NCBI GenBank assembly: GCA_026770705.1 | Contig: JANJGN010000034.1 | Location: 6,138,001 to 6,202,000, forward strand | DNA: 64,000 nt | Direction of reading: 5' to 3' | DNA from: Isurus oxyrinchus | Taxonomy: Eukaryota | In this document: positions 813 through 55,699 of the stretch, piece after piece | Position numbering within the stretch: the stretch's first letter is position 1 | Layout of the letters: every line of letters begins with the position of its first letter | Notes under the pieces: model-generated | Told to the model about the DNA's origin: nothing | The model's input: only the letters and a program-made list of their open reading frames with translations | Databases searched by the model: none | Program-made: the position numbers and the translations under genes

Positions 813-827
813 AGAAATTAAAAAAAG
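813..827 (+). CDS. 15-nt microexon, (E)KLKK
   Basis: tttgtttcacAG|agaaattaaaaaaag|GTaagt; good pyrimidine tract, consensus donor. Confidence 0.75.
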
Positions 828-929
828 GTAAGTGGAAATATGCTCGAGCAACTGAACGCGTAAATGGGTGAAAAGAAACATGAGAAAAGATGGATTCGCA
901 GTGATTACACATTCCAATTTAAAGTAACT

Positions 930-1200
930 TTTAAATTGTCATTGTTATATGTTAATCCCTCTATGGCCTCGATCTTCCATATTGCCTTGAGAATCCTCTG
1001 GCCTTACAATTGGCTGCAAGTTTTGTGTTCCCACCACGCTGGCCTCTTTCTGATCGCGCTGTTCCTTCACCTTACCAATGGCGACTTTCGGCTTCTGCAA
1101 TATGTCCCAAAACTCTGAATTATGTTTGCTAAATCTTGCACCTCATACTCTACTTCGTCCTTTAATATTCATATATTTGCTCTGTGGTTTCCAAAGTCCA
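930..1200 (+). mobile_element. L2-type LINE 3' fragment
   Basis: ccctctatggcctcgatcttcc...cttaccaatggcgactttcggcttc...aactctgaatt resembles the recalled fish/shark L2 3' end. Confidence 0.55.
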
Positions 1201-1249
1201 TTCCTCGTCCTCACCCCGGATTCTGGCCAACAATTAAAGTTTTGTTCAA

Positions 1250-2275
1250 AACATGGTGAAATGCAGTGTGGTTCGTAACGCCCTGTGGCACTTCTGTTAT
1301 TGGGACGGCCTGCTAGGAACCTTAGAAATACTCAGTGGACGATGCGCTGGCTTACATGTCCTCAGAACAAACAGGGAAATACATGGCATCTGCAGCAACA
1401 CAATGGCTCTTCTGGCCAACAAAACTGCAATTGAACCAAACCTCCAAACGTTTTAGTTTCCTGCCATTGGACCGAGGTGTCGTTCTCTAAAGACAGGCGT
1501 GGAAGGTGGTGTGAAACGGTGTCTGCATCCTAACATTTTGCCCACACGGGCATCTTTCTTTCTGAGTACATCTACCATGACATCAGGTGTCCAGCGAATG
1601 ATGGAGGGCACATTGTTGTGTTGTATCAAAACGATCACTTGACGTATGCTTGCACTGCATTTGGTCAATTGAGAAAGCGAGCATTTGAAATTCGCAACAC
1701 CAAAACTGACAGGAAACTCATGATCTGTTATTTGGGCCTGATTCCCACCTTACTCTGCAAGGCCGAATCTTCAAGATTTAAAAGGTGCAGGAGGCACCTA
1801 AGGCACTTGGTTCATACAATTAAAAGTGGCTGCAAAATAAATTGCATATAAGTGGGAGGGCAGAGATGCGGACAATGTCAGCTCTCATTTATCAAACTCC
1901 CAAAATAGTTATTGTTCTCCAAGAGGACAGACGCACCAGAGGAGGGCGGAGGACGATCTTAAGGGATGAGCTGAAAAGCAACATGAAGAAAATGAATTAT
2001 TCACATGGGCATCTCGGTGAACACCGTTTATAGATTAAGCCAAACGGCACCAGGCACTATAGGAAGGACCCTAGCACTTTGAAAATGAACAACTAAAATA
2101 TGATTCGGAAAAGCAGGAGGGTTCAAAGAAAAACAGCGTGACTCGAATTATTGATGCACGAACTGGCACCCAACAGGGCATTGGTGCATGAAGTCTGCAG
2201 GTCCAGCATCTGCCTCATCAGCCATCTCATGCTCATGGAAGATAATCGTCCTGGCTAGCGAGGCATAGCCAGTAA
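1250..2275 (+). mobile_element. Degenerate RTE-clade LINE (C-terminal ORF region)
   Basis: Translations AFGQLRKRAFE..KLMICY..IPTLL and RRTRGGRR..RDELKSNMKK, plus a 3' VCRS.I.LISHL-like motif, match RTE ORF C-termini. Confidence 0.7.
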
Positions 2276-2699
2276 TAACATTATCTGACATCAATTAATC
2301 ACATGTCCCAATGTGGCCACATGTTGCATCACCTCCAGGTTTGTGAAACTGTTTGCCTGAAAACAATTTTAGTCTTTTCCTGGAGTAAGTCACTATATCC
2401 AACATAATTGCTTTTTCCTAACAACAGTCTACTTTCAATCTCTACCAGCAAAGTCCCACTGACAGAGCTGAGGAATCAGTTGGTCGCAGGATACTACTTG
2501 CAGGTTCTTAAGTTCAGTTAACCATTTGGGAGAAAACCATGTTTCCCGAAGAGAAATTAAACATTTGTAACATAACCAAAGAATATAGGTTGTCACAGAT
2601 CGGTTACAGCACAGAAAGAGGCCATCGGGATCTTCGCAACAGAAGCGGATCTCTGGGTGATTATCTCGGATTTTCCCATGCTCCAGACCTTCAAGTGCA

Positions 2700-3460
2700 A
2701 TGCATGCAACTTGCTTACTATTGAAAGAATTACCCAGCCTCGTATTAAAAGCCACGTTTGTCCCTTTGCCGAGCTCATTCTTAGACATTGCATTTAAGAA
2801 CATAATCATGTGCTGCTCATTTATTTTTCCCAATGTCCCCTTGGTTCCCTTTCACTGGACGTTAACTCAATGACTTCCGGTTCTAGACCATTCAGGATGG
2901 GAAGAGTCTAAGTCTGCCTAACATGTCGAGGCCCTGTCGTGAATTTGAGAAGCCCCATCAAATCTCCTTTCAATCATTAGTTTATTTGTGCACAACCGCT
3001 CTAAAGTCTCCACTTTTCCTCCTAGAAGAAACAATCATCTCTGGAAATATTCCCATGGATACAGTCTCTACCCTCTCTAACGTCTCCACTAGTCCCTTAA
3101 CTATGATTTCCAAAATTTGATACAATTCCCGAGTTGAAATCGAACTAGTGGTTAAGCAGCTTTACCATAACTTCCATTCTTTGGCTGCCTATTCATGTCT
3201 TTATAAAGCCGAATATTTCAACTGCCAAAGTGATGGCGCTTTCAATCAGCCCTGCATCTTGCAACCATTTGTCCTCTTTTACTTCCAAAGCCACATCAGA
3301 AGCTTCAATCCCATTTGGAATGCTATCACAAGTTGTGCATTACCTCCTCCTACCAAAATGAATTACTTCGTGCATCTCTCTATTAATTTTACCTGCAATA
3401 GTTCCTTCAATTCCACCAGTCCATCTGCGTCCGTTTTATGTATTTAACCATCATCCTTGC
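2700..3460 (-). mobile_element. CR1 LINE 3' fragment
   Basis: Reverse-strand CR1 RT C-terminus and 3' UTR-like sequence. Confidence 0.6.
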
Positions 3461-3618
3461 AATTCATAGCCCTGTAAAACCTGAAAACTGATAATCTGAA
3501 AGTTTTGCCCTGGACACTCATGTTTATGTCCTTGATGCATACCACGTAGATTGGAAGTGGGAAACGGCATCGTTTTTGTTGACAATTCAGTTTAGAAAAT
3601 CCATGTTATGAATTACAG

Positions 3619-3654
3619 AGCTAAGCGAGTGTCAACAAGCTAGAAAAGACCTAG
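3619..3654 (+). CDS. 36-nt microexon, (E)LSECQQARKDL
   Basis: aattacAG|agctaagcgagtgtcaacaagctagaaaagacctag|GTgagc; shares the [ED]LxxC motif with four other 36-nt exons. Confidence 0.8.
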
Positions 3655-4077
3655 GTGAGCAAAACATTCCTGGTGTCGCTTTCGATAACACGCCTTATTA
3701 TTTTGGACCATTAAGCAAATGCATTTTTATTCTTTAAAATGTGAAGTCATCAATTCAGGCACCCATTATTTGGCGATAGGCCCTCATTCGCTTCTGTTGA
3801 TTTCAATAAAATCAAATGCTGGGCAGGAAGCAAAATAGGCCGACCATCCGATAGTGGGCAGGATGAATTTCTGATGCTCCATGCGACATTATTATTGGCA
3901 CTTTTTGTCGAAACACTTGCTCTATCCTGCACACTAACGGAATGATGAATATTGTTAACTTTATCGATTTGGTACCACGTTCACAAAGTGTTGTAAGCAA
4001 TAACGAAACTCCCCCCTCGTGAAAAATATTCTTTAATCTTATAACTTTTGGTTTGTTTATCATGTAATCCCGAACAG

Positions 4078-4104
4078 AAGAAAAACTCAACGCAAAAGAA
4101 AAAG
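4078..4104 (+). CDS. 27-nt microexon, (E)EKLNAKEK
   Basis: gaacAG|aagaaaaactcaacgcaaaagaaaaag|GTaact; close paralogue of 33627-33653. Confidence 0.85.
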
Positions 4105-5042
4105 GTAACTGATCTGACATATTTTTCTTCAAAAAACCAGACATTGACAATGGCTGATAGCTTCCTTACATGAATTGTTTTGCTTTCTCATGAATGTTTT
4201 AAGTTTTTTTTTACGAAGCAGATTGCTAGAATGTAGCCTAAGGGTTAGCAGCAGAGGAATCCTATATAAGGGTTCCATGTTTTCGAGTATGAGGGCACAT
4301 TTTCGGATGCTGTGTCACACAAAGTTGGAAGGCAATAACTAACATGTGAAATAATTAACAGAATAAGCAAATCACTTAATGCTCCTTAAACAATGTCATG
4401 GCAACAACGATGTTCTCGCTAGCACAGAGAATTTGGAAATAAAACATTTGCAGTGGTTAAGAATGACATGTTTGCTGATAGAGTTTATGAAGGAGTTCTT
4501 CTGACGCCGTTGCGGTGTCACAACTTTCGGCCAGAAGTTCCGCCTTCAAGTCTCACTTCAGGACTTGCTCGCTGTTGAAGCTGTTTTCATAAGGTGGCTG
4601 ACTGCATTGGTTACCATCTTCTAAAGTGTTCCAATGTGCCTGGCAGCAGGTGCTAAGAATGGGAGAGATACTTGCCAGCCAGACATCCGGAAGCAACGTC
4701 ATTTGACTGTCGTGCTTTGCCAAGCATAATCGTGGCCACATCCAGTCGAAATCCATGATCACGAACACCCTCTGAATGCAAGTTACCTGAAAACTAGGAA
4801 ATAAATAACAGATGTAGTAAGTTGTTCTGGCGGAGGATAGGCTTAGGCATGGGACACTTGATTGGACGGACAGATATATTCCTCTAATTTGTGTGGGTTG
4901 GCGTACCCTCTCGAATTCCATAGACTTAAATATATTTTGTAAATGCAACTCACTGGCCATGAAAAAATACAGAGCGCCCTCTATAGTTGATCGGTGACGT
5001 GACTAACCATGGAGAAACACAGTGTATCTACTTAAATAAGGG

Positions 5043-5077: not shown

Positions 5078-5989
5078 GTCCAGCAGAAAAAAAAATCTGC
5101 AAAAGCTTTTGATTGCACTTTTGTGCAAGTTAATCTGAAAACAAAAGCCCAGTGCATGTTACTAATTGAATCTTACCACGCCGTTATATGATGGAATTAT
5201 ACGATGTCTTATTTTTTAAGCATGTATAATATTCAAGTAAAATATCCTAAAGCATGCCATGCAGCTATTGGACACCAGCTCGGGGAGATTCAATGTGATG
5301 TCTCTATATGTTATTGCACAATCTGTACTCAAGTAAGGTTCCCGATGCCAGCCTTGTGCTTATTGCTACTGCAATCCCAGCACTCTGCTCTTCGTTAAAA
5401 TGCAGTTTGAAATGGTGGCCCAAATTAGACCTCGCATTTTATGAATATGATGCAAGGATCAGCTGAGGGAAATATTCTGCCATTCCTTTTGTGTAGGTTA
5501 AGAAGGCACTTCAGGAGGATGTGAGCGGGTGTACATATGGGTAATATGAGATGCAATATGTTGAATTATGGAGCGCAAGGAAGGGCATGATCTACTTTGT
5601 CAAATACAAAAACTGTACTATAAAATCTGTATTGTAAGTCAGGAGGGTGGATGGGAGGTAGAGGGCGAAACGTGGTGCAATTTAAGCGATGGTGAAACTC
5701 TCACATCTCACCCTTTCAGAGATTCTAACGTGCCAAGTGTCTTTAAAGGATTCAGGTGGGAAATATATTTGGTATTTGTGTAAAATAGCCACTGCACAAA
5801 ATATTCCTACAATTCCTAGCCCACACGTAGAATACAGAAATGCCGATCAGCAATTTTAAATATACACATGTAGATTTTGCCTGCATCATATATTTGCCCT
5901 GCCAAAAAAGAAGGCAAACCTCCACCATGCCTTTAACTGCTATATGAAAGTGTTTTATCCCTCTCCATCTCTCTATCATTATCTCTCTC

Positions 5990-6774: not shown

Positions 6775-6801
6775 AAACAAAGCTGAAAGGCAAAGAAAAA
6801 G
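6775..6801 (+). CDS. 27-nt microexon, (E)TKLKGKEK
   Basis: gccttgacAG|aaacaaagctgaaaggcaaagaaaaag|GTagcc. Confidence 0.8.
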
Positions 6802-15541: not shown

Positions 15542-15577
15542 AAATATATTATCTCCAGATTAAACTTCAAAAATGCG
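15542..15577 (+). CDS. 36-nt microexon, (E)IYYLQIKLQKC
   Basis: ctcattttcAG|aaatatattatctccagattaaacttcaaaaatgcg|GTgagt. Confidence 0.8.
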
Positions 15578-17425: not shown

Positions 17426-17452
17426 AAGAGAACCTAAAAGTGATAGAAGAAG
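17426..17452 (+). CDS. 27-nt microexon, (E)ENLKVIEE
   Basis: ctttcacccttcgacAG|aagagaacctaaaagtgatagaagaag|GTagtg. Confidence 0.75.
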
Positions 17453-29968: not shown

Positions 29969-30029
29969 AGCTTGAAGAATATCATTTTTGCGCTCAAATC
30001 CACCCCTTCATTCTGGGGTTTTCACCTGC

Positions 30030-34500: not shown

Positions 34501-35499
34501 TTGCCACCTGTGGAAAATTTCTAAACTAAAGAGCGATAAATAGAAATGTAATACTCTCTCCAAAGAACCCTTAAGAGTATCCATGATCTGTAATTCGCAA
34601 TCACATCCTGGCAAGTTGAATTTAGGGGACTGTTTAAAACAAAATCACATGAGCTGAACTCCAATCAGATGTTTTTCTCACGAGTTGGTTTGACCTCGGG
34701 TGGAAGGTAGTTCTAATGTGTTTTAATTGCTGCCTTTAACTCATTTGATCGAATGTCGCTTTTTCTCTTGCCTGCACATTTTATTTGCACCAGAGTTTGA
34801 AATGCTAATATCCGTGCCTTGTTTAGATATCAATCAATTTTACCACCCATTGATTGCAAGATAACACCATGTTAGCCAATGTTTATAAATAGCAGCGACT
34901 TGGCAATCAGCAGTCCCTGTTACACCATCGATCAGATTGTAAACACAACCATGTTACGTTCACATTATAAAGAACCATGCTTGCCTGAAAGTTCATGACG
35001 TAAGAATGTAGCAGTCTTCCGCATCAGAGTGAAGTCAATCATCAACCGTTCCCACACTATAATTCGCCAGAAAATAGTGAATTTACTTTACAGTTCCAAA
35101 TGAAGTATCAATTAGGCATACAACATAGAATTGCATAACATTTAGTGAAAAGCATCTGGCGATGCCGCACAAATACACTATGACAGCATTCAAGCTCCAG
35201 AGGAGCCATATGCAACATTACCTAACCTAGCTTCAAATATGGAGAGTTATAATAGGAAAACATACATGACACGTTAAATCACATTTGTGGGTATATACGT
35301 CACTGCAGGCAGGTGTGACGAATTAACATTTCACTGAGCCAACATGTGAACTATGTAACATAACCTCTCCTGATCTGAAAATTAGACAATTTTAACATGT
35401 ACTGCCATGCATTAGAAAGGATTAGTGGTAGGGGAAATAAATACAGCAAAATACCTTTTGAAGCTGAAGTATAATCAATGTTCCTCCTCTACATTGCAG

Positions 35500-35535
35500 A
35501 GCTAATCGACTGTCAAAACGGCTTGAAAGAGTTAG
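35500..35535 (+). CDS. 36-nt microexon, (E)LIDCQNGLKEL
   Basis: ttcctcctctacattgcAG|agctaatcgactgtcaaaacggcttgaaagagttag|GTcaga. Confidence 0.8.
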
Positions 35536-38930: not shown

Positions 38931-39551
38931 ATCCATTGGATCTCTCCTAAACTTCCATTTGTTTTAAAAGGTGCAATGTGTGTCCATTCTTCTTTTGTCT
39001 GCAAACGCCAAGGTGCTGATTAGAATATATATAGCCTCTAGCCATTAGCAGATCAAATGAGCTGAATACATGTTGCGCATTATTCAATTAAAAACTAATT
39101 CGGGGGCAGTAATTCCCTAGTTGAGTCCCCAGGACACGTCCTTGATAAATCAGAGTTGACCTCCGTGGCTTGAATATAAACAAAACTTGGCAGTTAACAG
39201 TCACTTGCTAGTGTATTGTCCGTGACAACATTTCGATCAATCATAGACTATTTGGCAACAAATACCAACTCTCTTCTAAAGCAGTGTGAATTTTTGTGCC
39301 CTTTAAAATTTCGTCTTCTTGTAAATTCTCCTGATGACTGCAAGATGGAAAGCATTGTCAACATGCCTCTTTTCACAGCAAAGCTCCAGTTTTGTTTTTC
39401 TACCAAACCATTATATGTTCCATATTCTGAGTTAGTTATTAGTTACCCATACTCAGCAATGTTAGTGTAAGTGCAAATTAGTTTCCTGCTCTTAACTAAC
39501 GATCTTGTGCACCATCAATTCATGGCTATCTATCATCATTCTGCTTTACAG

Positions 39552-39566
39552 AAAAAGTAAAGAAAG
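39552..39566 (+). CDS. 15-nt microexon, (E)KVKK
   Basis: cattctgctttacAG|aaaaagtaaagaaag|GTaggtgga; paralogue of 813-827, with a similar donor flank gtaagtgga. Confidence 0.75.
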
Positions 39567-40269
39567 GTAGGTGGATGCTTATTTTGGTACCTGACATTCA
39601 CAGTGTCAAAAAAAAAGATGTTCTGGTAGAAATGGATTTGTATTGTTATTGATCCAGGCAAATGAGGGTTACCATTGACAATAAACTTAACTGGTCACTG
39701 GCTGGGAATGCGACAGTGCGTAGCTGAACTCATACATACCCGATGCCTGCCCAACGTCTCCAAGGGATAATCTAGTATTACAATGTGCGAATGCACGCTC
39801 CAGTGTATAAGCACCAGTTTAGCACTGCTGAGTCATTTTGACATAACAGAAGAAAGAATAGCCAGTTTGAACCAAATCTCAATCATCACCTTGGAATATT
39901 GATTCCCTCCGGCACCAGCTCCTTGTGGCTGCAATACGTTGCATATACGAGATGAACCAAGGCAACCTCTACAACACCTTCCAAAACCGCCATTTTTTTC
40001 AATTTAGAATAAAAAGGGCAGCAAGCAGTTGGGAAAAAAAACACTTGCACTTTCCTTCTGAGGTCATGAACCGTGCTGATTTCAAATGCATCACTGATCC
40101 TTCCTCGTCACTGCCTGGATGTGTCTTTGCCACACGGACTGCAACAGTTCATGGCAGTAATTCAACAGAAGTTTTTGAACTGGAAAAGCGGAAGGGCCAT
40201 CAATGCTGATATTGACAACAACATCCGACGTCCATGTGTCCTAATCCATTCTTGTCATCATAATAGCTA

Positions 40270-40590
40270 TATAGGCTAAAACCTCCAGGCTATAACGTCT
40301 GGATGATTGCATTCCTGCCACTCTGCCCTCTTGCACTTCCAAGATTGCACTTCGTTTGATCGCTTTAAGAGTCTGTGCAAACCTTCTTCTGTGCTATTTC
40401 TCTGGAATGTTATCCCTGAACATTTCCTTCACTTCATCTCCCCTCTTTTAAATCACTACTTCAATATTATGTTTAAGAGAATACAATTAATTGTTTGTCA
40501 TTACAATGCTTTATCTTGCTTAATATCAAATTTTGATTAAGATAAAGGCATAATGTCCATGCAAATATTTAATTATTTTGCCTTTGCTGC
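40270..40590 (+). mobile_element. L2-type 3' fragment
   Basis: ctctggaatgttatccctgaacatttcc...ctctttaaatcactacttc L2 tail-like. Confidence 0.5.
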
Positions 40591-40779
40591 ATTCATTATC
40601 ATAATATATGTGATTTCAAACAGATTTGGGCAAGGAGACATTCGTGCCCCAATTACCTGCAGTCGGTGAAATTCGAGGAGCAATGTAGTGAGGCATAAGA
40701 TGTAACCAAAGAGAACATAACCTTGTTATAAAATTGTCGATCCATTTCGCCATACAGTCTACCAGGACAACTTTGCTTC

Positions 40780-43700
40780 GATTTGGATATGGAAAATGGC
40801 AATGGCACACGCATTTATATTGACTCTTGAGTCCCCCATACTGGCATCTGTGGGTTGTGCTAATGTTGGGAGAGATTCCTCAGAACCTAGTCAAAAAACA
40901 GCCCAACACAGTCATTCCACCAAAGCAACTGTTAAAGACAATGCCCCAGATACCACCATCACGATGGCTGAAAATGGCCTGAACCAGCAGCAGGTGCCAT
41001 AGTGGCATAAATTTTAGAGCTAGTTGCACTGGGAGACCTCAATATTGATTCCTGTCCCCAGAAGGTTCAATCACATCAAGTGAAACATGGCAAAAGATAC
41101 ATCTTGCTGATTGCCAACAGCTACTCCTTCCGCTCTCCGTTAGCTGATGAATCTCAGCTCATCTGTTGTGAGCACCAATGAAGAAGGACCGAGTGTGGCA
41201 AGAACACCGAATGCACTTTGGGCGGGGACTTCAATGCCCATTGCCAAGAGTGGCTTGGCTGTATTACTGACCGAGATGGCCGAATCCAAAAGAATAGTAA
41301 GGTTACATTCTGCCTGCAGAGAAAATTAGTAAATCAACAACAGCAAAAAAACCTACTTGACCGCTTTCTCCTCAATCTATCGCAGATAAATCTGCCTATC
41401 AATGTATTGGTAGGAATAATCATCTCACATTCAGCGAAACAAAGCACCGTTTGCTTACTGACGGTATCCTCGAATATGTTATGTGGCATTGTCACTGTGT
41501 TAATTTGGATAGATTACCAATACATGAAGCAACTCAAAGCGGGCCACACGAGGTGTAGTGGGGCATCAAAGTCCTATTCAGTTACCCTATCTTATCCTTG
41601 ACACACCATGTACCCTATTCTAACATTAATATCAGGTGATGGGAGCAACCCAGGTTCAATGATGAGTGCAGGAAGACCTGGCCGAAGTAGCACCCTGCGT
41701 ACCTAATAATGAGCTGCCCACCTGGTGAAGTTAGAAGCTGCGAGTGCTTGCCTGCACTCTAACTGATGCAAGATGTGATAGACACAGTTGAGGGAAGGAA
41801 GCATCATATCAGAACTACACTCCGAAATCCTCTCACAGAGAATCAGTAATGATGCTGGACAATTAACCAAACGGCTGGAGATGGACGCTCCACAATCATT
41901 CCATCCTCAGTGTTTGGGATCCGACTTGCAAAAGACAAAACTGTAGCATTATCCAACATCTTCCAGAATTGCAGAATGGCTGACCTGTTTATGTCAATTC
42001 CTGAGGTTCCGAGCACCCCAGGTGCCAGTATTGAACAAAATGTATGCAGCTAATGTGTTTGTTATTGGCGAATGCATGTCCACGAAGTTAAATGATATGC
42101 TGCTCATTTGCTGTTTATTTCGCTGATTAGTCTGCAACTAAATCTATAGAGGGGGTATTCTTGGAAAGGTGCATCATTTTGTGCCTCTATACAGAACGGC
42201 ATAATGTGCATGTAATGTAGAGGTAGGACTTAACAAGAGTCCTGGCCTGTGCTAAACCTGATTAACAAGAAGAACCTTTGTAATGGTACTTCAGGCCCAA
42301 AGATCGACAGATGGCTTCTTAAACATATGTGCATGAGCAGCAAGAGTAGGGTATCAAGCCCTTCGTTGTTTTGTGCAATTCACTAACATCATGGCAGATT
42401 GCATTACCGTCACAATTCAACTTTGCTGTCCGACAATTTAACACATTATGCCCTTGTCTATCAAAATTCTTTTTAACTGCATTTGCATAAATTCAGTAAC
42501 TCAGTCTCCATTGTTTACTTTGGATGAAAATTCCACCACTAAATACACTTTGAGGGAAATAATTGCTCCTCATTTCCATCTTAACTTATAGACCTCATTA
42601 TTAAATGGTGCTTCCTGCTCCTACTCTCTCCCACAATTGTAAACATTGCGCCTGCTATGTACTTTAACCAGTCCACTCGGGATCTTACATGATTGTGTTT
42701 CAGTTGTTTTAACCCCTATCGGTAAAGGCCAATCTTGTTCAACGGTTCTTCTTAAGATCAGCCCTTCATCACAGAAATGATTCGGGTGAACATTATCTGA
42801 ACTAAATCTAACATAATGATATTTGCCTCTTCAAGGAAGGCCAAAACTCGAAACAACATTCCAGATGTGGCCTCATCAGATGCATTAAACGCCCATATTG
42901 ATGTACTGAATTCTCCTTGCAATAAATGCCAACATTGCATTTGCCTTCCGAATTACTTGCTGTAATTGCATTATAATGATTTTTTTTGTGATTCGCATCG
43001 CAGGTTCCTCGAATCCCTTTGTGTCACCGAGTTCTGCAGTCTCTCGCAATTTATTTTTTATATTATTTTTCTACTCTTCCTGTCAAAGTGTAAAAGTTCA
43101 CATTTTTCCACATTATACCCATCTACCACGGTTTTGTCGACACATTTAAAAAGCCTTTGTCCCTTAGCAAAGTCTCCAGTTCGTGTAAAATATTTTTTTT
43201 CTCACCCATCTTGGTAACAGGTGCAAAGTTATCACCATTCATTCGTTACCCTCATCCGAAACATTCATGTAACATGTAAATGATAGCGGATCCTGCAGTA
43301 ATGCCTCTGGCATTCACTCATTTTTTTTTTTGTCTGCGAACCCAAATACGATGGAATTACCCCTTCTACTTCCTGTCTGCACACCAATCCTTGATCCATG
43401 CTGATGTGACACTCCCCATTCCAGCTACGTGTACCTTGTCCAGCAACTGTTGAGGTGCACTTTAATAAATGCCTTCTGGAAATGCAAGTACACCAAATCC
43501 ACACTTTTCTTTTGTCCACCTTGTTTGTTACGACCTCATTCAACTTCAATAATTTAGTTCAACACGTTTCCCCTTTCGCAAAATTATTTTCACAATACCT
43601 GATTCAATTCGGAAGTCATATGTATCTTGCTATATCCTCTTTAACGATGAATTCCACCAATTTCACTCTGACAGTGTTAGGATAACTTTCCAGGTTGCTA

Positions 43701-46700
43701 TCCCCCACTATCTTGAAGAACAGCATTACATTAGCTTTTACCCAATGCCTTGGAGCCCTTGAATAAACAAGGGGATTTTGGAACACTATAATGAACACAC
43801 CTAAGATCACTTCAGACATTTCTTTCGCTACCCGAGGGTTCAAGCAATCTGCCCCTGGGAACCTATCAGCCTTACAATCGAACAGATTTTCCAACATGTT
43901 TTTCCCTAGTAATGCTGATTATTTTCATTTACTCCCTCGCGTTCACCTGTTGATTTTCAGTTATATTTTGAAAGTTCCCATAACCTTCTGCATGAATGTA
44001 CACACAAAATGTCTGCCGATCTCCTCTGCCATTTCCATGTTCTCCAGATTCTCTCTCTCTAAATGATGAAGATTATTTCCAGTTACACTTTTCAAACGTA
44101 AACATTTGAATATAATCTTACTCTCTGTTTCAATAGCTTTCACCAACTCTCTATGTCTCCCTCTTTATTTATTTTCTTTCTTTATTTTGCATAAATGTAT
44201 GTTTTTCCTGATTCAAAATATTTGACCAATCATCAGGCGAAATAGTAATGTTTGAAATTTTGTACTTTTTTCAGTTTGATACTATCTTTAACTTGCTTAT
44301 GTGGCCTTGCATCATTATTCCTTCTCAGAGATTATTTATTTCACATTGGATATTTTTTTTCCTGAGAGCTATTAAATGCCTCCTTAAAATTCTGTGCTAC
44401 CTTTTACACATAGTTTCTGACTTCAGGTTAGTTAGGTTTGGTTTCATATTCTTCTAATTACCTTTATTCCTGCTCACAACACTAATCCTTTCACATATTC
44501 CTCCTGAAAACTGGCCATGAAATTCTATTGTGCCATGATCGCTGTCACCTAGGGCCCTTGACAATGAGGATTTTGATTAAACTTGCGTCATTACTCATCA
44601 CCAGTCCAGGATAGCCTGCTCCCTTGCTGCCCCTAGGACGTATTTGCTGTAAGGAATTTTGCCGAATACACTTTCTAAAGTAATGCTTCAGGAGAGCATC
44701 TGCAAGTCTGCTTCACCCAAAATATGTGTAGATGAAACTCCTCCATGAGCATTGTGGTAGTTTTCCTGTATGTCTCATTTATTTCATCCTGCACACCCTG
44801 TACTACCGTGTAAACTCAGCTAGGGTATCTATTAAATTACCCCAATGTTGACATATACACTTTACTACTTCTTTTCAGCGTCAGAATAAATTATACATTT
44901 TGCTCTTTCCAGCCACCGTCATCTCCCACAGCAGCCCTAATCACATCTTTCATTAATAAACTTACCCAGTAACAATCTTTTCAATTCTTATCTTTTTTAA
45001 GGGCACAAGAACCTTGTTGGTGACTTCTCGTGTTTCATATTCCATCAACAAAAGCAAGTGGTTGTGTGCATGTCAGTGCGGGGTGTGCAAGAGGATGGGA
45101 TGGGTTGCGGGTCTTGTTAAGGGAGGGTTCCAGTTACGATGTTCATTGTTGCATTGAATTCAGTGTCATAAACTGTCTGTGTGTGAGCTGAAGATGTTTA
45201 TCAAACAGATGTGCAGTACTCTGCTGCACAGTATGGCGGGGCAAGTAGTAATGTCTGGTTTCCTCTAGCAGCAGCACTCCACCTAGATCTGAGAATTCAT
45301 GTTTGTGGATTATTTCTGCTTCTAATTCTTTCTCCTGCTTTCTTCAGATGGTCCAAAATGATAAAGCCCTGGTTAGAGTTTTTGTCAAGCAGCTTGGAAA
45401 CATGTTTTAGTCCAGGGGCACAAATGTAAATATACAATTTAGGGGCATTTATATTGTGGAGCAGAAGTAACTTGATATAGATTAACTAGGACTTGACGTG
45501 ACAGGCCATGTGCTACAGTAGACATTCAACATGGTAATTGTTTGCTAAGGTTCCAGTCAAGGATGCAGAAGGATGGAGCTTGGGTGAAAAGGACACACAT
45601 CATCAGCATGGGTTAAGTTTAGAGACTTTGTTGACAATAGATCACGTGTATACGTGTAGAAGAGGGTTGTGGCGAGCACTGAGCCGTAGTCTTTTGACCA
45701 GTCTTGGCCATGCATTTCTAACCACGTGATATCAAGTAATGTCTGACAGCTCTGGTTACTGCAAAGACTACAGTTCCTGCCAACATTCCAGAAGACTTCG
45801 ATTTCAGAACTAGACACACCTAAAGTCAAGCTTTATCTTTCTGCTAACACACTAGCATCTACCCGAACACATGCAAAACTGGCAAGGGATGTCTTACCAT
45901 ATAAAGCAGGGCAATTCCAAGCCAGTTATTTACCACAACATCTTCTAACATTCAATCATCAACAAACTGACGAAAGAGATCGATCACAATGGTATCAAAT
46001 GATATATATTTTGTAACGGCCTAGTCCCTGACGCTCAGTTTAGTTTCACCAGAGAAATACATTTCCTGACCTCATTACAAACTTGGTCCAAACAAGGGCG
46101 AGATGACGTCCACTCAAAAGTTGAAGTGAGACAGAATTCAGCGACATCCAGGCAGAATCGTATCGAATGTGGCACCATGGTCGGCTAATAATACGGAAAG
46201 CCATGGGAAACGCGGTTAAATAGTCCACTGGGTGGAGTCATTACTTGAACAAATGAAGATAATTGTGGTTGTCGGTGGTCAATCATCTCAGTTCCAGGGC
46301 ATCTCTGCAAGAGTTCCTAAGTTTTGTGTCAACTGTGCAATGATATTCAGCTGCTCCATCAATGACGTTTCTTTCAACATAAAAACAAAAGTGAGGATAT
46401 TTGAGGAAGATTGCACAATGTTCGGTATTATTCACACCTCTTCAGCAATACCTCAACCTTTGAACATATGAAGCCATGCTTGGAAAAAATCCAGGCTTTC
46501 GCTGATAAGTGGTAAACATTCATGGCACAAAAGTAGCAGGCGATGTCCCCTCGACGTCCAATGGATTGGTATGACTTACCAAAAAATATAAACGCCCTTG
46601 GAGTGATCCTCGACCATAAGCAGAACTGGACCAGTCATATAAATACTATGGCTGCAGGAGGGGTTCAGAGGTTTCGACATATGCACAGAGTAAATAAACT

Positions 46701-47260
46701 GCTGAGTCCCCAAAATCTTCAAAAAGGACGCAGATCAAGAGTGTGGTTTAACACACTTCTCCTTGCCTTGTTAAGTGAGGTTCCAACATCACAAAAGATG
46801 CAGGGAAATGGATCCAGAGCAAAGCAGCTCCTTGACTCGCATTCCATTCGCATCGTGAATGGAATCACGTTGTCCAGGACCGATTCTCAGTGGCAGGACA
46901 GTGTGCTATCTATACGATTCATGACATGAACTAACCAAGGCTCTTTTGACAGCACCTTCCGCACCTGCGACATCAACCATCTAGAAGAGCAAATGTATCA
47001 GATGCAAAAAAATCCATCACCTGCAAATTCTCCACCAAGCCACAATTCATGCTGACTTTATACTTTACAGCCTTTCCTTCGATGTTGCTTGGTCAAAATT
47101 TTGGAACTCCCATCCTAATAGCACTATAAGTAACTTCAAAACATGGATAGCAACAAGCAAAGGAGGCAGCTCCCCATAAAATTCTAAAGTGCATTTACTG
47201 ATCAGCAAGAAATAATGGCCGATGCACCCAAGTTAACATTCCATGAATGAATAAATAAAT
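40780..47260 (+). mobile_element. CR1/L2-group LINE split into about 40780-42050 and 45680-47260
   Basis: MGGDFNAHCQEWLG endonuclease motif in the left piece; RT motifs (QGISARVP..IFSCSIND, LGVILDHKQNWTSHIN) in the right piece. Confidence 0.7.
42330..45010 (-). mobile_element. CR1 ORF2 remnant, inverted, inside the split LINE
   Basis: KADRFPGADCLNPRVAKE..WVKANVMLFFK and MEMAEEIGRHFVCTF CR1 motifs. Confidence 0.85.
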
Positions 47261-47653
47261 ATAAATACAGTCTCTTTGTCTCACCATTTGATCAATCGAC
47301 CTTGGCAATATTGTGGACGCATTGTCAAGGTTTTGCTCTCATGTTTTCCCGTGGGTTGACTTGGTTTACTCAGATAAAAAAAAACACAATAATTTGCCGC
47401 TATCCTCTTTATTATCTCAAGGTTTAGTAACTATGTCAAAGCCTCTGCAGTCAGCTCTGTGGAAATACCTTTGCGTAAACAAGTAAGTTTGATATCCCTT
47501 CAATTTGGTAAACAATATGACAGAACACGATTGCTTTCCAATCGGATCTCAACTTTTATCATAAGAAAGTGAAATTTTGAATTGCTGAAGATATGAGGTA
47601 GTATATTGCTTTTAAAGCTTAAATGCTGTGAAAATCCCTAACTTGCATTGCAG

Positions 47654-47689
47654 ATCTGAAAGGTTGCCTGGAAGCTCGAAATGATACAG
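47654..47689 (+). CDS. 36-nt microexon, (D)LKGCLEARNDT
   Basis: ccctaacttgcattgcAG|atctgaaaggttgcctggaagctcgaaatgatacag|GTacac; upstream intron resembles that of 33156. Confidence 0.8.
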
Positions 47690-47759
47690 GTACACAAATT
47701 GTGTTGCCCGCATATATATTTTCCTTTGAGGTATAACCCTTCAACCAATCAGAGATCAG

Positions 47760-48932
47760 GCGGCATATAATATGGAATTCAACCAACAGTGTCTGTTTCA
47801 GAAAGCTTTTGCTAAGGTCTGACACAAAAGGTTATCAAACCAGACTACAGAACATGCTATGTGGAGAACATGCTGTCGCATACTCAGGACGAGTTCAGTG
47901 GGAGAAAGCAGAATGGAGGACTAAAAATATCATTTTCAAGTTGTCAGGTTGTGATTAATATGTTTTCATGAGGATCAGTGTTTCAACCACAGTTATTTAC
48001 GAAGTATATTGATCATTTGGACGTTGGGATTACATGTAATGCTTCCTAGTTTTCAGATGATACAAGACGAGGTAGGCTAGTGAGCTGTGCGGAGAATTAT
48101 AGAGGCTACAAGAGGATTTGGAGAGGCTAAGTGGGGAGGAAAAAAAATAGATGATTGAACGCAATGTTTAGAAATGTGTGGCTATCGTGTTTGATTGGGA
48201 AAACGGCACCACAGAGCATTTCTTAAATGGTGGGAGCCTGGGAACAGTTGATCTTAAAAATTACTGATGTGTCTTTGTTCGTGAGTCAGTTAGGGCTAAT
48301 TTGCATGCACAGCAGCAGTTGTACAATCGTTTGTTACAAGAGTATTTGCTTGTCAGAGGAAATGTTTCTTTCTGTAATTGTACTGAGCCTTCATGAGGCC
48401 ACAGCTCGAGAATTCTGTGCAGTTTTCGTCTCCTTACCTAAACTCATATGTACTTTCCATAAAGGGAATGAACAAAGTTTCAGCAGATGAATTTCAGTGA
48501 TAGAGCGATTTTTTCTACAAGGAATGATTTTGACGTTAAATCTATGGAGTTTAGAATTCCGAAATCTAATCTCCTTCAAACGTACAACAATCTTACAAGC
48601 CACGACAGGGTAAACATAGGAAAAATGTTTCTCCTGGCCTCACTGGGGAGTCTTGAACCAAGTGAGGAGGTCGCAGAATAAGAGGTAGAACATTTAGGAA
48701 TGAAAAGTGGAGGAATTTCATCATTCAGAGGGTGGTGAATCTTTTGAATGCTCTGCCCCAGAGAGCGCTGCAGCCCCAGTCGGTCACTATGTTCTAGACT
48801 GAGTTCGATAGATTTATACATATTCAAACATGAAGGGTGAAGTTTGATTGTGGGAAAATGGTGCTGAATTAGATCAGAGCTGATATAATTGAAGGACGGA
48901 GCCTGACTGGCTTGCCCCTGATCCTACATCTT
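47760..48932 (+). mobile_element. CR1 3' portion (RT C-terminus and 3' UTR)
   Basis: ttcagaaagcttttgctaagg, tttcagatgatacaagacgagg, gagggtggtgaatcttttgaatgctctgccccagagagcg. Confidence 0.85.
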
Positions 48933-49559
48933 GGCTAGAAATTTATGGTATCAGGTCGGGTGCTGGTCTGACCCCATCGTACAAGAAATTGTGTGAAATG
49001 ATGTTGTGCTTGTGTCCCAACATCATTGCTCACGCGAATATTATTCAGGCCAATTAAAGAACCAATTAATATTAACCACCTATTTAGGCCATTAAAAAGC
49101 CGATTGCCCACTAATTTGCATGGCCTGTAGGGTTTCGCTGATGTCGCAAGGCAAAATGGGTGGGCAGACTGCTGGCGTTTAACTAATTGCCCACCAAGGA
49201 GGGGATTGAAAGAGCCCGGACCATTGTCATTGTGGGCAGTGAGGAGCTCAGGAGATAATTTGCTGTGGTTTCGTAAATGAAATTGATAGTTTTATCAATG
49301 TGTGGAGCTTCATTCTTTGCATTGCTTGCCTTCAGTTCATGACTCATTGGTGTTTCCAAGGTTTCTGGAGGTTTTATACCATATGGATCTTTCCAGTTCC
49401 CAGACAACCTGCTGTTTCTCTGGTATTGGGGATAGCTCCACTGCTGGGACGTCCAAGAGGAGCAAGGGCGGGGCAGACGTGACAGGAGGACCTGCATCTG
49501 TAGGCAGTGTCCACAGAAGCATTCTGAGGGAGGGGAGGCACAGGCATAGGGAACGAAAG

Positions 49560-50650
49560 GCCAGCAGGCTATTCAAACTGGAGTCGACCGCAGAAGAATC
49601 CAATATCCTGCTGCCAAGGTGCAAAGGCAGTGATTCAGCGGCCTTCACATCACAGAGATTCAGTGCTAAAGGAGGCTCTGCTTCTCAGCCCTTACGTGAC
49701 CTCCCTATATCAAATGATTTCGTCAGAGATCACCTCCAACTGTGTTTGGGCTATTCATTGCAAGTGGCTCCGAAAGCCACAATGTCACACAGCCTCCCGT
49801 TCTTTCCATGATTAAGTGGACGATCTTTGTGGCTCTCCCAATCAACTGTCCCAAGTTCATTGAACCCAGTAACTGATAAATTGTTCAGGCGTACCATGAG
49901 ATTTATTCCTTGTTGGGCGTTTGAGACCAAGCGGGCTGAGCTAGCCAGAGGTGTCACTGCGATTGTTGAGTTCCCCCACATACAGAGTGACATCGACTGC
50001 ACACCTCTGGCCATCAAGGCGCCAGTTCATGAGTCATGCACTACCGTTAACAGGGAGGGTTTCCACTCCACGGATGTCCAGGTAATTTCTGACTACAGGA
50101 CACAGATTCTGCAATTTTTTTGCAAGGTACCCAAGTAGATTCCAAGGGGAATACGTCCACCAACACTCACAAATGCCAAGGCTGTTCAGAGCTGCTGATC
50201 GACTGCATGAATGGAAGCTGGGTGACCAGGCCTATCCATTGAAACGAAATGGCTTATGACATCTCTCTGCATGCATGGAGAGAGGCAGGGTAGAGGTAGA
50301 GTAGGAGTCGTGACTGCACAAGTGCAGTTTTACTGAGGGCCAGAGGTCTGCTGAAGATGAGATTTACATGCCGACAACTTTCAGGGGAAGCAGGAGAATA
50401 TCTCCCAGAGAACGTGTCCCTGATAGTCCTTGTGTGCGGTGCTCTCAACATCCTGGTTTTGGCAAGGGGGAACCACAGGAGGGAGAGGATTTTGAGGCAG
50501 CTGCACCGGCTGCAGATGATGACTCCAGCGGCGGGTAGGCTGAGGGTCCCGGGGAAGAACATGGTGAGGGAGGCCCTCTGGAAACTTCAGGAAGACGGTG
50601 GTTCATGGCTCCTTCAGCTAGGCTGTTTTGGCGTTGCTGGCACCTAATGC
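49560..50650 (+). pseudogene. Harbinger DDE transposase (HARBI1-family) remnant
   Basis: FPHIQSDIDCTPLAIKAP..VNREGFHSTDVQVISD and GLLKMRFTC..SGEAGEYLPENVSLIVLVCGAL; stops and frameshifts. Confidence 0.9.
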
Positions 50651-52469
50651 CAGACGTGCCATTTCCTTATCAAATGGATCAAATCTCCCATTCTAATGAA
50701 CCCAAAGTCCACTCTGTACTCGTACATGAAAGATTTGAACCACTCGCATCCAGTTTGAGTCACTGCCGTGCATTACACATACAAAAGAATCATGCTCAGG
50801 TCATTGAAACAAAATCAAATTTGATAAAATGTTGGCAGTCAAATAAAATTAACATCGTTATATAAGGTGTTAATTATTACACCATTAAACAAAGTAACAA
50901 AACATGGCAGAAGAGAAGATTGTCCGTAGGAAGTCACACTTGAGCCTTACCTTTGTGAGTGTTGCATCTTGGTGACCCCAAAAATCCACCACACACCCCC
51001 ACCCCTGGCCCAAACCGGCCACCCCCACCCACGCCAGATCACTGGCAGCCACTTTGAAGGCCAGCCTGCGGACGTTGCAGCACTGTGCACGACCTGTCTG
51101 GGAGGAAGCACTCCTCAGTCATGGCGGCCTTTTCAGATGCCATGATTGCTGGTAGGGAGTCAGAGGAGATGCTTCCATTATTCATAACGCTATAAGCGGA
51201 GACCGTGGAGATGATAAACAGCTCGCCCAACAAAGTGAGGTTAGTCTGGACCTCGCTGTCTGCCATTTAATGGGCGGGAGCCAATGAGGGATATCAGGTC
51301 TGTCACCTAACCATCACAACGGCAGTGACCTACCGAGATCATTGCCTGTTTGAGTGCTTGCAGTCCAGTCAGACACACAAGGAGCCTTTGATTCTGTTCC
51401 TGCAGCCGCCTGTCAAATGAAGTTGTCACTCTCTCAATGGAGAGGACAGTGCATTCTGTGCTGAGTGTCAATGCAGTACTTATGCTCCGACTGTACTCCA
51501 CCATGAAATAAATGATGGGATGCAAACCCCCTGGAATGTCTGTCTGATTTTCCTGTGCATCCCGCTGGACATCCATCATTTGCCGCCTAATGGATGACTA
51601 CAGATCCTCAGACTCAGTAAGCTCCTGGTCTCTAGTAGTCCTCTTCCAGCACCATGGACACTCTCTGCCTCTGCCTGTTCCTCATGCTAGTGTTTTGTAC
51701 CCTCGTCACTGTGTACCAACATTATAGCCGATGATCTAATGAACACTGAGGTGTTGGTATCTGCACTGGTGCCGTGATGCAGAGAGGGGGTGTGATGCAG
51801 GTGCACCTGAAAGAACTTGGTCTTCCCGCATCAAGTGTTGCTCATCAGAGTCTTGCAATCGTTTGCTGGATGGCAATGCTAGTGCAGAAAAACTACAGGG
51901 AACCAGTATTCATCATCACACTGTTAATGTGCAGAAAAGGTGGGCTGGTGAGGCAATGTGGATCTGCTTCATTGTGCGTCTTCTTTCAATGAACAATGGG
52001 GGCTCCAGGTTTGAGATTTCCATTCCAAAAGAATCATCACAACAATGTTTACATGCTGCGAAACTGTCACATTGCACCCAACTTTCATCAGACACCCCTG
52101 CATCTCCATGGCACGTCGAACGAGATGTGCGCCTGCGCTCCGTCCATAAGCCATGCACCTCGTTCCTCATCAATATGTCTAGGGTTCAGGCAGCTCCACC
52201 TGACCTTCACCTCTTGATGTTGTCCTTCTCATGAAAGGAGAGAGGAACATTGAGTAGTCCGCTCTCTGCTTGTAGTGCCATTGTAGCCTGACCAACACCA
52301 CCTGAGGAACAGCTTGCAGGGCACTTCCGGTTCGTGGCCCTCAACCCTCAATGTAATCAGACCAAGCAGCCAGAGCTCACCGCCTAGGCGGACGCCGATC
52401 TCATTTACTCAGACTATTATACCCCTAAGCATGGCGGGGGGGATGGCCATACGTTAACACTGCTCCACA

Positions 52470-52745: not shown

Positions 52746-53257
52746 TGCCCAGAGCTTCAGGTGCCATTGCTGTTAAAAAAACACTTGTCAAACAATTCCA
52801 AAGCTGGAAAGCGTCTCTTGTCTGTCTCTGTCTCTTTTAAATTACCCAACATATCGCCATTAGACATGGCAACCAATTGGTTCCCTCCGGGCTCTTCCTA
52901 CCATTGAACCTCTATATTGGCCACTCAGAGTGAAATCGTGTTGGAAGCTCGGTCCAGGCCTGGAACGGATTTTGCGTTTGCTCCTGGGCCCGGCATAATG
53001 CATTCGCCAAGTGTCAAATTCAGGCCATTATATTCTTATTGTAGTGAAATAATTTATCTTCCAAAAAAATCCCGCAATATACCAGAAACTTCATCAAACC
53101 TGTTTTACATTACCGCATACTTATTGTGATACCAGTATGTTTGCAATCTTCTTGTTTTAACCTGATTGACAGCATAAATTGGCAATAACTGCTCGCCACA
53201 TAACGAGTTATGCGATTAATATCATACATTTATGGTTTACCTTCCACCCTCTAACAG

Positions 53258-53284
53258 AAGTCAAACTCAAAGTAAAGGAAACAG
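53258..53284 (+). CDS. 27-nt microexon, (E)VKLKVKET
   Basis: cttccaccctctaacAG|aagtcaaactcaaagtaaaggaaacag|GTagta. Confidence 0.8.
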
Positions 53285-53831
53285 GTAGTAATTCGTCGTG
53301 TTAAGGCACCAAAAATTGAGCAATTGTTTATCATGTTCTTTTATATCTCCTATTTTGTTTAAGTACGGTTTTTCTTTCAGAATTTCTTATTCAATATATA
53401 TATGGCAAATGTTAGTAGGGAAACGATGATATGAAGTATTTCCCTAGCTAAAGCGTAAATGCAGCACAAGGGGGCATAAATATGCATATAATATATTCAT
53501 CGATGAACACAATAAGAGATAAGACCATACTTCTTTTTATCAAATCGGTCTGTGACTGTGGAAATCGTTAGCAGTTCGAGTGATTGAGTGGAATAGCAAA
53601 GGTTTCTTTTCAGCAGTCACTGGTTCGATAAGGAAGTATGTTAAAGGGCATTATTCTATTAAGCATAAAAAAGTAAACAGAAATGACAATGATGTGGAGC
53701 ATATAGGTTGCATTGAACAGCAGGATATATAAGGTGTAAGGTGCTGTAGGGACTATGTAATAATGATGGACAGCTGTTATAAAATGCTATTGAAAGCTAA
53801 ACGTCAAAGAGTTGCACTTTCTTTGTTCCAG

Positions 53832-53867
53832 AGTTGAAAAAATGCCAAGCAGATTTAAAGGGTGCAG
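53832..53867 (+). CDS. 36-nt microexon, (E)LKKCQADLKGA
   Basis: cactttctttgttccAG|agttgaaaaaatgccaagcagatttaaagggtgcag|GTggag. Confidence 0.8.
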
Positions 53868-55672
53868 GTGGAGAATGTTCTTGGTGTCTCTTTGAAATAG
53901 TTGTTATCAAAGATAAACTAGTTATTCTTTCTGAGACTCAAAATTAACAAGACCTTACCAAAATCACTGCAAAGTTGGGCATCATTAAAGTTTCAATGTG
54001 CAAAGTTAACATTGACACCATGCAATCATCAAGTGGAGTGTGAAGTCATTCGATAAATTTAGCAGTGCTTGTTGCCTCTATGAGTTATGCAATTACGCTA
54101 AAGCCCTATCGATTTAATCACTGTCCTTCAAACTGACCCACAGGGCAACACAATTATCCTAATTTCCCCACATGTTTTGTTTTCTTTTGCCTCTCAGCTT
54201 ATATATCTGCCTCTTGTCACTTACAGTCGTGGCAATGTTTACTCTCTCAAGACACTTCACAAACTTGCAATGATTTTGTTGTATCGTCGTCCACACACTC
54301 TGACGAAGGAGAACAGCCCCAGTTGGCCCGAGTCTCGATTTTTGTTGTACATCCCTCATCGTCGGAAGTGTCCTGTGAAATCACTTCTCCAGTCTCCCTT
54401 TCGAAATCCTTGACATAGTTCTGAAAGATAGGCCACAGAACTTGGATGCAATGCGGCTTCGCAAATTTATTGCCCAGAAAGCTGTATTCAGCGAATGACG
54501 GCTAATTAGAAATTGATTTTGGATGGCAGTACAATACTGGAGCATATATAATTGTCCGTCTGTTATTGGCCCAGGAAGATATTCAATTTGTAAGATTTCT
54601 GGCATCTGAACCAATTAACCATTTCACTCTTAACGCTGAATTATTCGAAGTATCTGTGTCTGTTTTTATATAGTGTTCATCTTTATGAAAAATTGACACA
54701 TAGCAGTCTCACAGCTGTTATGTTGCATCACAACATCTCTAGAGTATTGTTGCGCAATGTTGCAAGCTTCCAGCTAGTCCGTCCATGCAGGTTTATCCAT
54801 TACAGGCTAACCCCCATATATTTCCACCTACTAAGTGCTCAGGGAATCCTTTATTATAATTTCCCGTAACAGCACATTATTTTAAAGAATTATTTACTTG
54901 ATTTGATTTAGCTTGTCCAGTTATGAAATATGCTACATGATTTACTGCTTGGCCGAGTCAGTTCATTATCTCATGATCTCCAATGGCATGTGGCTTTTTA
55001 CTCCAGAATCTTTATCAACTTGGCAAATTTCCCGTGCTGGTGCCTGGCTAAGCAGGGACATCGTGATTCCTTGAAACCCATGGTCTGTTGTCTTGGACTC
55101 GATACACTCCATTGAATCTTCACCCCTTAGCCTGCTCCCTACCAATTCGGCCTAAATATTTTATTTTGTGCCTCACACACTAGCTGGCTGGTTGGCACAT
55201 TAAACATTTCAGCTGAATATTGTTTTTAAGAAGAAGGAAAACCCACACCATTACATTTCACCACGGAGGTAAAAAAGCATAACATACGAGAGCTTTCATA
55301 AAATGAGAGAAAATTATGGGTTAGAATCAGTGAAACAAAGCAGTGCAGTGCAGAGGGAAGAAATGATTCTTAGGGGCTTCTTACACAGCTTTCAATGCCA
55401 CTGGATATCATATGAATCGTAGGATGGATGCACCTTGTGGAATTGTTTACCTCTACCGGGCAAGAATAAAGACCAACACCCTCACCACCACCGTGCACTG
55501 TTGGCTTGGAGCGACGATGACTCATCGGGCAATGTGAAACCTATTTATAACCCTACATGCCTAGTTACCTGACAGCAGCCGAATGACAAGGTAATTTGTT
55601 CGATAATAAATTTACTCAAACAGACACTAAGCAATATAAATGCATAATCTTTGATTATTTTCTATTTAACAG

Positions 55673-55699
55673 AGGAATTTCTTGCTGACAAAGATAAAG
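55673..55699 (+). CDS. 27-nt microexon, (E)EFLADKDK
   Basis: attttctatttaacAG|aggaatttcttgctgacaaagataaag|GTaatc. Confidence 0.8.

Follow-up and report, generated by a model that had tools for sequence, protein, structure and literature searches.

A megabase array of small frame-symmetric exons closed by a B30.2 exon in Isurus oxyrinchus, and what it may encode

The window analysed in this study is a stretch of 64,000 nucleotides (nt) from the 4.98 Gb genome of Isurus oxyrinchus (C34:6,138,001-6,202,000, C34 being contig JANJGN010000034.1; positions without prefix are window positions). Between 813 and 55699 its forward strand carries 21 microexons of 15, 27 or 36 nt, each open as phase 1-1. 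They belong to an array of at least 1.30 Mb (C34:5,094,514-6,396,339), which is closed by an exon encoding a B30.2/SPRY domain. With moderate confidence we read this array as one very large gene of cartilaginous fish, here called gene A, which would encode a giant coiled-coil rod with a B30.2 head and whose microexons would mostly be spliced in order.

The microexons and their array

Scans for short AG...GT units detected 20 of the 21 window microexons, and the alignment of repeated module copies added the 21st, 24943-24969 (Table 1). A sequence-only reading of the window had noted that each exon is a multiple of three long, starts with AA, AG or AT and ends in G or A, so that any junction codes for E, D, K or N. 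We confirm this observation with one amendment. All 21 lengths are multiples of three, the last base is G in 19 exons and A in two, and the first bases are as described in 20 exons, 24943-24969 beginning with AC. The 210 ordered pairs of window exons give the junction codons E (149), D (35), K (20) and N (6), and no stop. In a scan on splice-site strength alone, with length and frame left free, 91 of 122 forward-strand calls at C34:5,678,001-6,395,800 measured 15, 27 or 36 nt, as compared with 4 of 59 on the reverse strand. Two candidates, 48057 and 61361, were rejected on score alone.

The 718 kb read continuously (C34:5,678,001-6,395,800) hold 259 exons from the combined scan, against four reverse-strand calls, and the array is uninterrupted across them. 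The sizes of these calls are 15, 27 or 36 nt in 254 cases and 21 nt in two; the ten copies of exon 24943-24969 come on top of the 259. Samples farther upstream yielded 22 exons in 78,650 bases (with no reverse-strand call), 6 in 65 kb (two reverse) and 2 in 24 kb. The 5'-most exons seen are two of 21 nt at C34:5,094,514 and 5,096,074, both conserved with a paralog, gene B. About 300 microexons were seen across the array; scaling of the samples would give about 380, roughly between 330 and 470, and a chain of about 3,900 residues. The window accounts for about 5% of gene A.

The terminal exon (C34:6,395,819-6,396,339, locus L042) lies about 194 kb beyond the window end. It has a phase-1 acceptor and 172 codons followed by a stop, and is directly preceded by a 27-nt exon. 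It is a Pfam SPRY domain (E=1.8e-13), and its profile matches B30.2 structures of BTN3A1 (E=5.9e-32), BTN3A1/A3 being its best matches among solved structures. There is one SPRY exon per array unit. Other close SPRY exons on C34 lie at 7.50 Mb (92% identical), 4,816,515 (58%), 3,474,122 (44%) and 2,708,644 (45%); the last three, about 0.8-1.6 Mb apart, may be the ends of other giant genes. Gene B, which was sampled in part, is a tandem duplicate of gene A. At C34:7,014,000-7,169,000 it holds 17 matches to the window exon pair 3560-4160, many of them about 7 kb apart. We regard this as an independent expansion of a shorter module, from which it follows that array length changes in evolution.

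Table 1. Features of the window
Positions	Strand	Feature	Basis
1-64000	+	Internal part of the presumed gene A, which reaches past both window ends	Array scans, SPRY exon
1-25684	+	Last of ten tandem module copies (25-30 kb each), starting about 800 bases before the window	Homology to previous copy ends near 25684
813-827	+	15-nt microexon, type B	Splice-unit scan; in 10/10 module copies
3619-3654	+	36-nt microexon, type A, core Leu/Cys	Scan; module copies
4078-4104	+	27-nt microexon, type B	Scan; module copies
5720-5755	+	36-nt microexon, type A	Scan; module copies
6775-6801	+	27-nt microexon, type B, donor gtagcc after AAG	Scan; module copies; donor score
8012-8038	+	27-nt microexon, type A, ends in A, donor gtgagt	Scan; module copies; donor score
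14938-14964	+	27-nt microexon, type B	Scan; module copies
15542-15577	+	36-nt microexon, type A	Scan; module copies
17426-17452	+	27-nt microexon, type B, donor gtagtg after AAG	Scan; module copies; donor score
22682-22708	+	27-nt microexon, type A, ends in A, donor gtaagt	Scan; module copies; donor score
24232-24258	+	27-nt microexon, type B	Scan; module copies
24943-24969	+	Probable 27-nt microexon, type A, begins AC	Module-copy alignment; use inferred
28844-28858	+	15-nt microexon, type B	Scan; relative's DNA contig spans it, one listed change inside
33156-33191	+	36-nt microexon, type A	Scan; gene B paralog retains both splice sites
33627-33653	+	27-nt microexon, type B	Scan; gene B paralog retains both splice sites
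35500-35535	+	36-nt microexon, type A, donor gtcaga after TAG	Scan; donor score
39552-39566	+	15-nt microexon, type B	Scan
47654-47689	+	36-nt microexon, type A, donor gtacac after CAG	Scan; donor score
53258-53284	+	27-nt microexon, type B	Scan
53832-53867	+	36-nt microexon, type A, donor gtggag after CAG	Scan; donor score
55673-55699	+	27-nt microexon, type B	Scan

Selection, alternation and heptad register

Ten tandem module copies lie at C34:5.885-6.162 Mb, with most of the last in the window; the module counts 13 exons in the copy tests and 14 in the feature list. Intron divergence between copies is 16-18% of sites. AG and GT are nevertheless intact in all 130 module exons, where 41-45 losses would be expected, and the exons contain no stop as compared with 14.7 expected, an outcome reached in none of 2000 neutral simulations. 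No exon was lost across the ten copies, whereas a candidate in the same introns, 21614, had lost its donor or suffered a 1-nt deletion in four of the nine copies holding it and was rejected. Non-synonymous and synonymous differences (pN 0.084, pS 0.145; ratio interval 0.38-0.88) likewise indicate that the microexons are under purifying selection and functional. At 24934-24975 the old acceptor now reads CAA in all ten copies and a new AG stands 9 nt downstream; the gtgagt donor is invariant and the frame open in all ten, and position -3 is now a pyrimidine, the better base, in three. Exon 24943-24969 thus appears to be a 36-nt exon cut to 27 nt by an acceptor shift. Ten diverged module copies and two paralogs, including an acceptor moved by 9 nt, amount to a natural experiment on the upkeep of microexon splice sites.

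Donor strength had been described as varying from consensus to weak, and the weak hexamers are indeed present as listed. Ranking by hexamer is misleading, however, when the exon end is counted in. Scored with a simple matrix of vertebrate consensus frequencies, which served for acceptors as well, the five weak window donors (6775, 17426, 35500, 47654 and 53832) total 0.8-1.6 bits, all of them preceded by a strong exon end (AAG, CAG or TAG). The two supposed consensus donors (8012 and 22682), whose preceding exon ends are poor, come close to them, with totals of 1.6 and 2.4 bits. Across exons the totals range from 0.8 to 8.8 bits. The gtragt donor is found in 26 of 29 exons not ending in G as compared with 34 of 207 ending in G; counting one module copy, the figures are 5 of 8 and 17 of 111 (p=0.005). 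Donor weakness is thus partly offset by exon-end strength. The five weak donors still stand at the low end, so that regulated skipping could act on them.

Tandem exon duplication without frameshift requires equal phases at both exon ends, and an array grown by exon duplication is therefore expected to stay in frame whichever subset of its exons is used. Freedom from stops is nearly automatic too, since a phase-1 stop needs an upstream exon ending in T, which is rare under the donor consensus. The proposal that any subset can be spliced without a stop holds for the window and fails for the array as a whole: among the 259 called exons there are three, all outside the window, with T as last base, and stops arise at 637 of 33,411 pairwise junctions. 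Two of the three are weaker calls; the third, a 36-nt exon at C34:5,685,491, is a strong one. Its junctions with most downstream exons are stops, and with a nearby exon starting with CT it codes for Ser.

The exons are of two types. Type A exons (36 or 27 nt) are hydrophobic at positions 2, 5 and 9, in the 36-nt class also at 12, and end on a core residue; in 75% of the 36-nt exons, position 5 is Cys. In type B exons, which measure 27 or 15 nt, a single hydrophobic residue stands at position 4 or 3. Through the 21 window exons A and B alternate strictly, and among the 183 exons scoring above 8 at C34:5.841-6.24 Mb they do so in 180 of 182 transitions (182 of 188 at a lower score threshold). 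The alternation rule predicted an exon in the single B-B gap of the module, and it was found in 10 of 10 copies. Pairs of A and B comprise 21 (n=44), 18 (23), 17 (13) or 14 (10) residues, of which 21 make three heptads and 18 and 17 shift the register in opposite directions.

Heptad periodicity of the chain in genomic order is 0.545. It declines to 0.513 in random subsets of 90% of the exons, to 0.434 in half subsets and to 0.381 with shuffled exon order, none of 200 trials in each case reaching the in-order value; after dropping of adjacent pairs it is 0.541, and 79 of 200 trials reach the in-order value. When the conserved Lys of B exons is taken as core, which the periodicity test does not do, the 3/4 core spacing of the window survives none of 19 single internal skips and all 18 skips of adjacent pairs. 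Alternation is kept in 46,366 of 2,097,151 window subsets (2.2%). Natural coiled coils tolerate some register breaks. Alternation would separate regulated from noisy skipping, as functional skips should remove even-numbered blocks.

A family of cartilaginous fish and its known counterparts

A SPRY search against 1.84 billion representatives gave as best single-domain matches named proteins of Leucoraja, Scyliorhinus, Callorhinchus, Narcine, Cetorhinus and Hemiscyllium, and one unnamed. In a quick tree of the 70 best of 171 proteins and four local domains, computed without the 3.47 Mb paralog, these matches and the four local SPRY domains form one clade (SH-aLRT 100) apart from TRIM-type domains. 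All named members of the clade are from cartilaginous fish, which marks a B30.2 family found here only in this group, from chimaera to rays and sharks. The SPRY query had no match among longer proteins. An alignment-based protein search gave eight matches, one of them in the family, and the Callorhinchus rod as query matched only itself and its own older model.

SPRY was the sole Pfam family above cut-off in nine of nine relatives scanned, with no RING, B-box or Ig. The 1,697-residue protein of Callorhinchus shares Leu-x-x-Cys rod motifs with the array; its N-terminal 326 residues found no match in the genome, which is to be expected with tiny exons. Three of the nine relatives start with a hydrophobic stretch, followed by basic residues in one, which may be intron read-through in gene models. 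Gene finding copes badly with microexons: the relatives have been annotated, for instance, as TRIM39-like, nuclear-pore anchor-like or myosin-2 heavy chain-like. RefSeq isoforms of the Narcine, Scyliorhinus and Callorhinchus relatives differ, as annotated models, by single blocks that keep the frame and measure 9 or 6 residues; some exon skipping is thus at least annotated in the family. Two gene models of the 1,697-residue protein, which are annotation versions rather than demonstrated isoforms, differ in 17 blocks, five of 9 residues and five of 12, and on this ground the exon sizes seem to date from the divergence of chimaeras and sharks. Among the listed holders of the SPRY exon there is no RNA, and two possible RNA runs on window 28600-48500 consist of repeat-like pieces, with no exon-exon joint among the pieces listed; both results are neutral on expression. 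Two DNA runs of a relative span all 30 bins, with about 1,210 differences, 40 of them listed.

Searches for further domains were negative near the array. On C34 2-8 Mb, neither butyrophilin-type IgV (133 of 133 candidates scored, 47 matches elsewhere) nor BTN-type IgC (PF22705; 110 of 110 scored, 37 matches elsewhere) was found, and the best such exons of the genome lie on another contig, C21. A general V-set search, which scored 150 of 3319 candidates, carries no weight. Thirteen TRIM/BTN N-terminal parts gave no tblastn match at E<=0.1 in the 1.04 Mb of DNA searched, which has gaps. No transmembrane exon was seen upstream of the first detected exon of gene B, the upstream DNA of gene A having barely been read, and no start codon or first coding exon was located in the upstream DNA read. 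A block conserved in both genes (L109:1973-2050, C34:6,511,973, and L100:~1545-1625, C34:~5,206,550) has an in-frame ATG, a short hydrophobic Cys-containing peptide and a phase-1 donor; it is only a candidate first coding exon, given that exons of 21 nt precede it. Another candidate, 75 nt long and hydrophobic, at C34:6,457,734, was rejected as 5' exon as it sits in a high-copy repeat. Also rejected, as ectodomain of gene B, was a nectin-like IgV exon at L055:2337-2690 (C34:6,424,337) with a stop and a frameshift inside. The corresponding search gave three matches (20 of 20 candidates scored), none before gene A, and an open-frame copy of 149 codons lies at C34:7,513,580, 17 kb after the SPRY exon of gene B. 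The broken frame, the copy behind gene B and the absence of any before gene A let us read it as a downstream neighbour.

Several known systems share parts of this design. Chicken BG proteins have a long coiled-coil tail encoded by many tiny exons in variable number, for which splicing variants are reported; the tail also exists in soluble form as zipper protein, which acts on actin-myosin (PMC5938342, PMC4046983). As described there, BG genes have 13-36 tail exons of 21 (18, 24) nt, an IgV and a transmembrane exon, and no B30.2 end. Gene A, in contrast, has about 300 exons seen, mainly of 15, 27 and 36 nt in two alternating types, and it closes with B30.2; neither an IgV nor a transmembrane exon was found. 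It shares the 21-nt size with BG, but such exons lie mainly at its 5' end and do not form a BG-style tail of heptads. Butyrophilins (BTN1-3, BTNL) have heptad exons followed by a terminal B30.2 exon, as gene A does, but also two Ig domains, a transmembrane segment and few heptads (PMC4046983, PMC12841164); the SPRY domain of gene A falls into a separate clade. TRIM proteins likewise join a coiled coil to a PRY-SPRY domain, and RefSeq names relatives TRIM39/58/69-like or zinc-binding protein A33-like; RING and B-box, however, were found neither in the nine relatives scanned nor in the 1.04 Mb of DNA searched. Enterophilins of the guinea pig combine a long leucine zipper (about 30 heptads, as against about 500 in gene A) with B30.2 and are not known to have RING or Ig; enterophilin-1 binds sorting nexin 1.

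With regard to frame symmetry, the direct precedent for the sequence-only reading is titin, from which a frame-neutral exon array is already known. Among its exons 50-225 only three have a length that is not a multiple of 3, and spring length is set by skipping of blocks in the PEVK/middle-Ig array (PMC3575840). The region skipped there is an elastic chain or a row of Ig beads with no heptad register, and no homology is claimed. Human titin has 363 exons, the largest number according to that paper; gene A, if one transcript, would be among the most exon-rich genes known (about 300 seen, about 380 estimated), with nearly all of them microexons. Schistosome micro-exon genes consist almost entirely of tiny exons, mostly multiples of 3, between long introns, and the coding region of gene A is likewise made of symmetric microexons. 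They differ from its hundreds of exons, periodic coiled coil and folded terminal domain in having 10-20 exons, a signal peptide, proteins of at most 189 residues and few shared motifs (bioRxiv 10.1101/2023.06.21.545858). Heptads encoded by microexons, B30.2 heads and arrays of frame-neutral exons are familiar one by one. A literature search thin on subscription journals found no description of this family, nor of the three features combined on such a scale with alternating exon types and with no Ig or RING found.

Readings of the array and further observations

In the favoured reading of gene A, the microexons would be spliced mainly in genomic order into a rod of about 3,700 residues, whose length at 0.148 nm per residue would come to about 550 nm. 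A ligand-binding B30.2 head would form its C-terminus. We infer that the rod would self-associate as a parallel coiled coil through the Leu/Cys core positions, the 17- and 18-residue pairs shifting its register in opposite directions. By analogy with the tails of BG and butyrophilin proteins it may serve as a long spacer or tether that holds the B30.2 heads far from its other end; a cytoplasmic location is favoured by the likeness to BG tails and zipper protein (PMC5938342, PMC4046983). The many core cysteines may alternatively point to a disulfide-linked extracellular rod. The array would have grown as A-B pairs and entire modules were duplicated in tandem, frame symmetry being both precondition and by-product of this growth, and occasional in-frame skipping would be tolerated with no free code arising from it.

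Several points weigh against this reading. The pN/pS ratio of about 0.58 speaks for moderate constraint only. In the outer parts of the array alternation as called holds in 19 of 33 and 31 of 42 transitions, tallies that precede the discovery of 16 further exons and of further exon subtypes there. Transitions are not independent, as alternation is partly inherited by duplication, and the core-spacing count depends on the Lys of B exons. Since C34:5.094-5.678 Mb was sampled only, a gene boundary may lie there. The single 9-residue blocks absent from isoforms of three relatives are disfavoured by the pair rule, and splicing of these exons is deduced from DNA alone.

Tissues could also set the rod length of the same gene by regulated skipping of pairs or modules, in the manner of a titin-like tunable ruler, which we regard as possible though clearly not probable. 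Even-numbered blocks can be removed with frame, register and periodicity kept, donor totals vary widely, and the expansion in gene B argues that length evolves. In titin, the PEVK/Ig exons, multiples of 3, are skipped in blocks under Rbm20 (PMC3575840). On the other hand, isoforms of relatives differ by single blocks and not by pairs, and donor compensation is equally expected from selection for reliable inclusion. A bolder version, which we consider rather doubtful, would be a single transcript richer in exons than titin and a ruler with a two-letter splice grammar: regulated skipping of alternation-keeping blocks would set the distance from an anchor to paired B30.2 heads over hundreds of nanometres, and the choice among 21-, 18- and 17-residue pairs would set supercoil pitch and hence which paralog or isoform pairs.

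It is improbable that the array comprises several transcription units or promoters, some without the SPRY exon, or that a membrane anchor or Ig exon that escaped detection makes gene A an ordinary member of the butyrophilin/BG group. The partial reading of C34:5.094-5.678 Mb, with little read upstream of 5.094 Mb, leaves room for such exons, and alternative starts among the RefSeq isoforms of relatives and the hydrophobic starts of three relatives agree with the idea. Against it stand the unbroken 718 kb, the single SPRY exon per unit, and the negative searches for BTN-type Ig on C34 2-8 Mb and for TRIM/BTN N-terminal parts.

The sequence-only reading survives in part: the exons are real, frame-symmetric and rod-coding, skips are frame-safe, and single-block isoforms are annotated in relatives. 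Its further proposal, that any subset is used and that the register shifts between isoforms form a dimerisation code, is the least probable of all. The stop-free window junctions, the 9-residue omissions in relatives, the tolerance of coiled coils for register breaks and the schistosome genes, reported to diversify by splicing of central exons (bioRxiv 10.1101/2023.06.21.545858), speak for it, but against a free code stand the failure of all single skips to keep core spacing, the few subsets that alternate, the loss of periodicity in 200 of 200 trials with random 10% exon loss, the retention of every exon in ten module copies, and the T-ending exons, which give stops with most partners.

Some further features were noted in passing. 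Two open reading frame fragments at L054:3857-4582 (C34:6,415,857-6,416,582) have weak hits to rhodopsin-family G-protein-coupled receptors below the Pfam cut-off and are probably a broken receptor gene. C21:82-118 Mb is a large TRIM/butyrophilin cluster whose B30.2 exons number well over 100 and are interspersed with IgV and IgC exons of BTN type, and a cluster of V-set and C2-set Ig exons lies at C34:11-17.6 Mb, on the same contig as gene A. In the window, 49300-50600 is rich in guanine and cytosine (49% in the 50001-52000 bin) and contains open reading frame fragments which we take to resemble a Harbinger-type transposase. A run of 45 C bases occupies 29087-29131, and 31463-31528 is an exact tandem duplication of 33 bases, present as a single copy in the relative's DNA.

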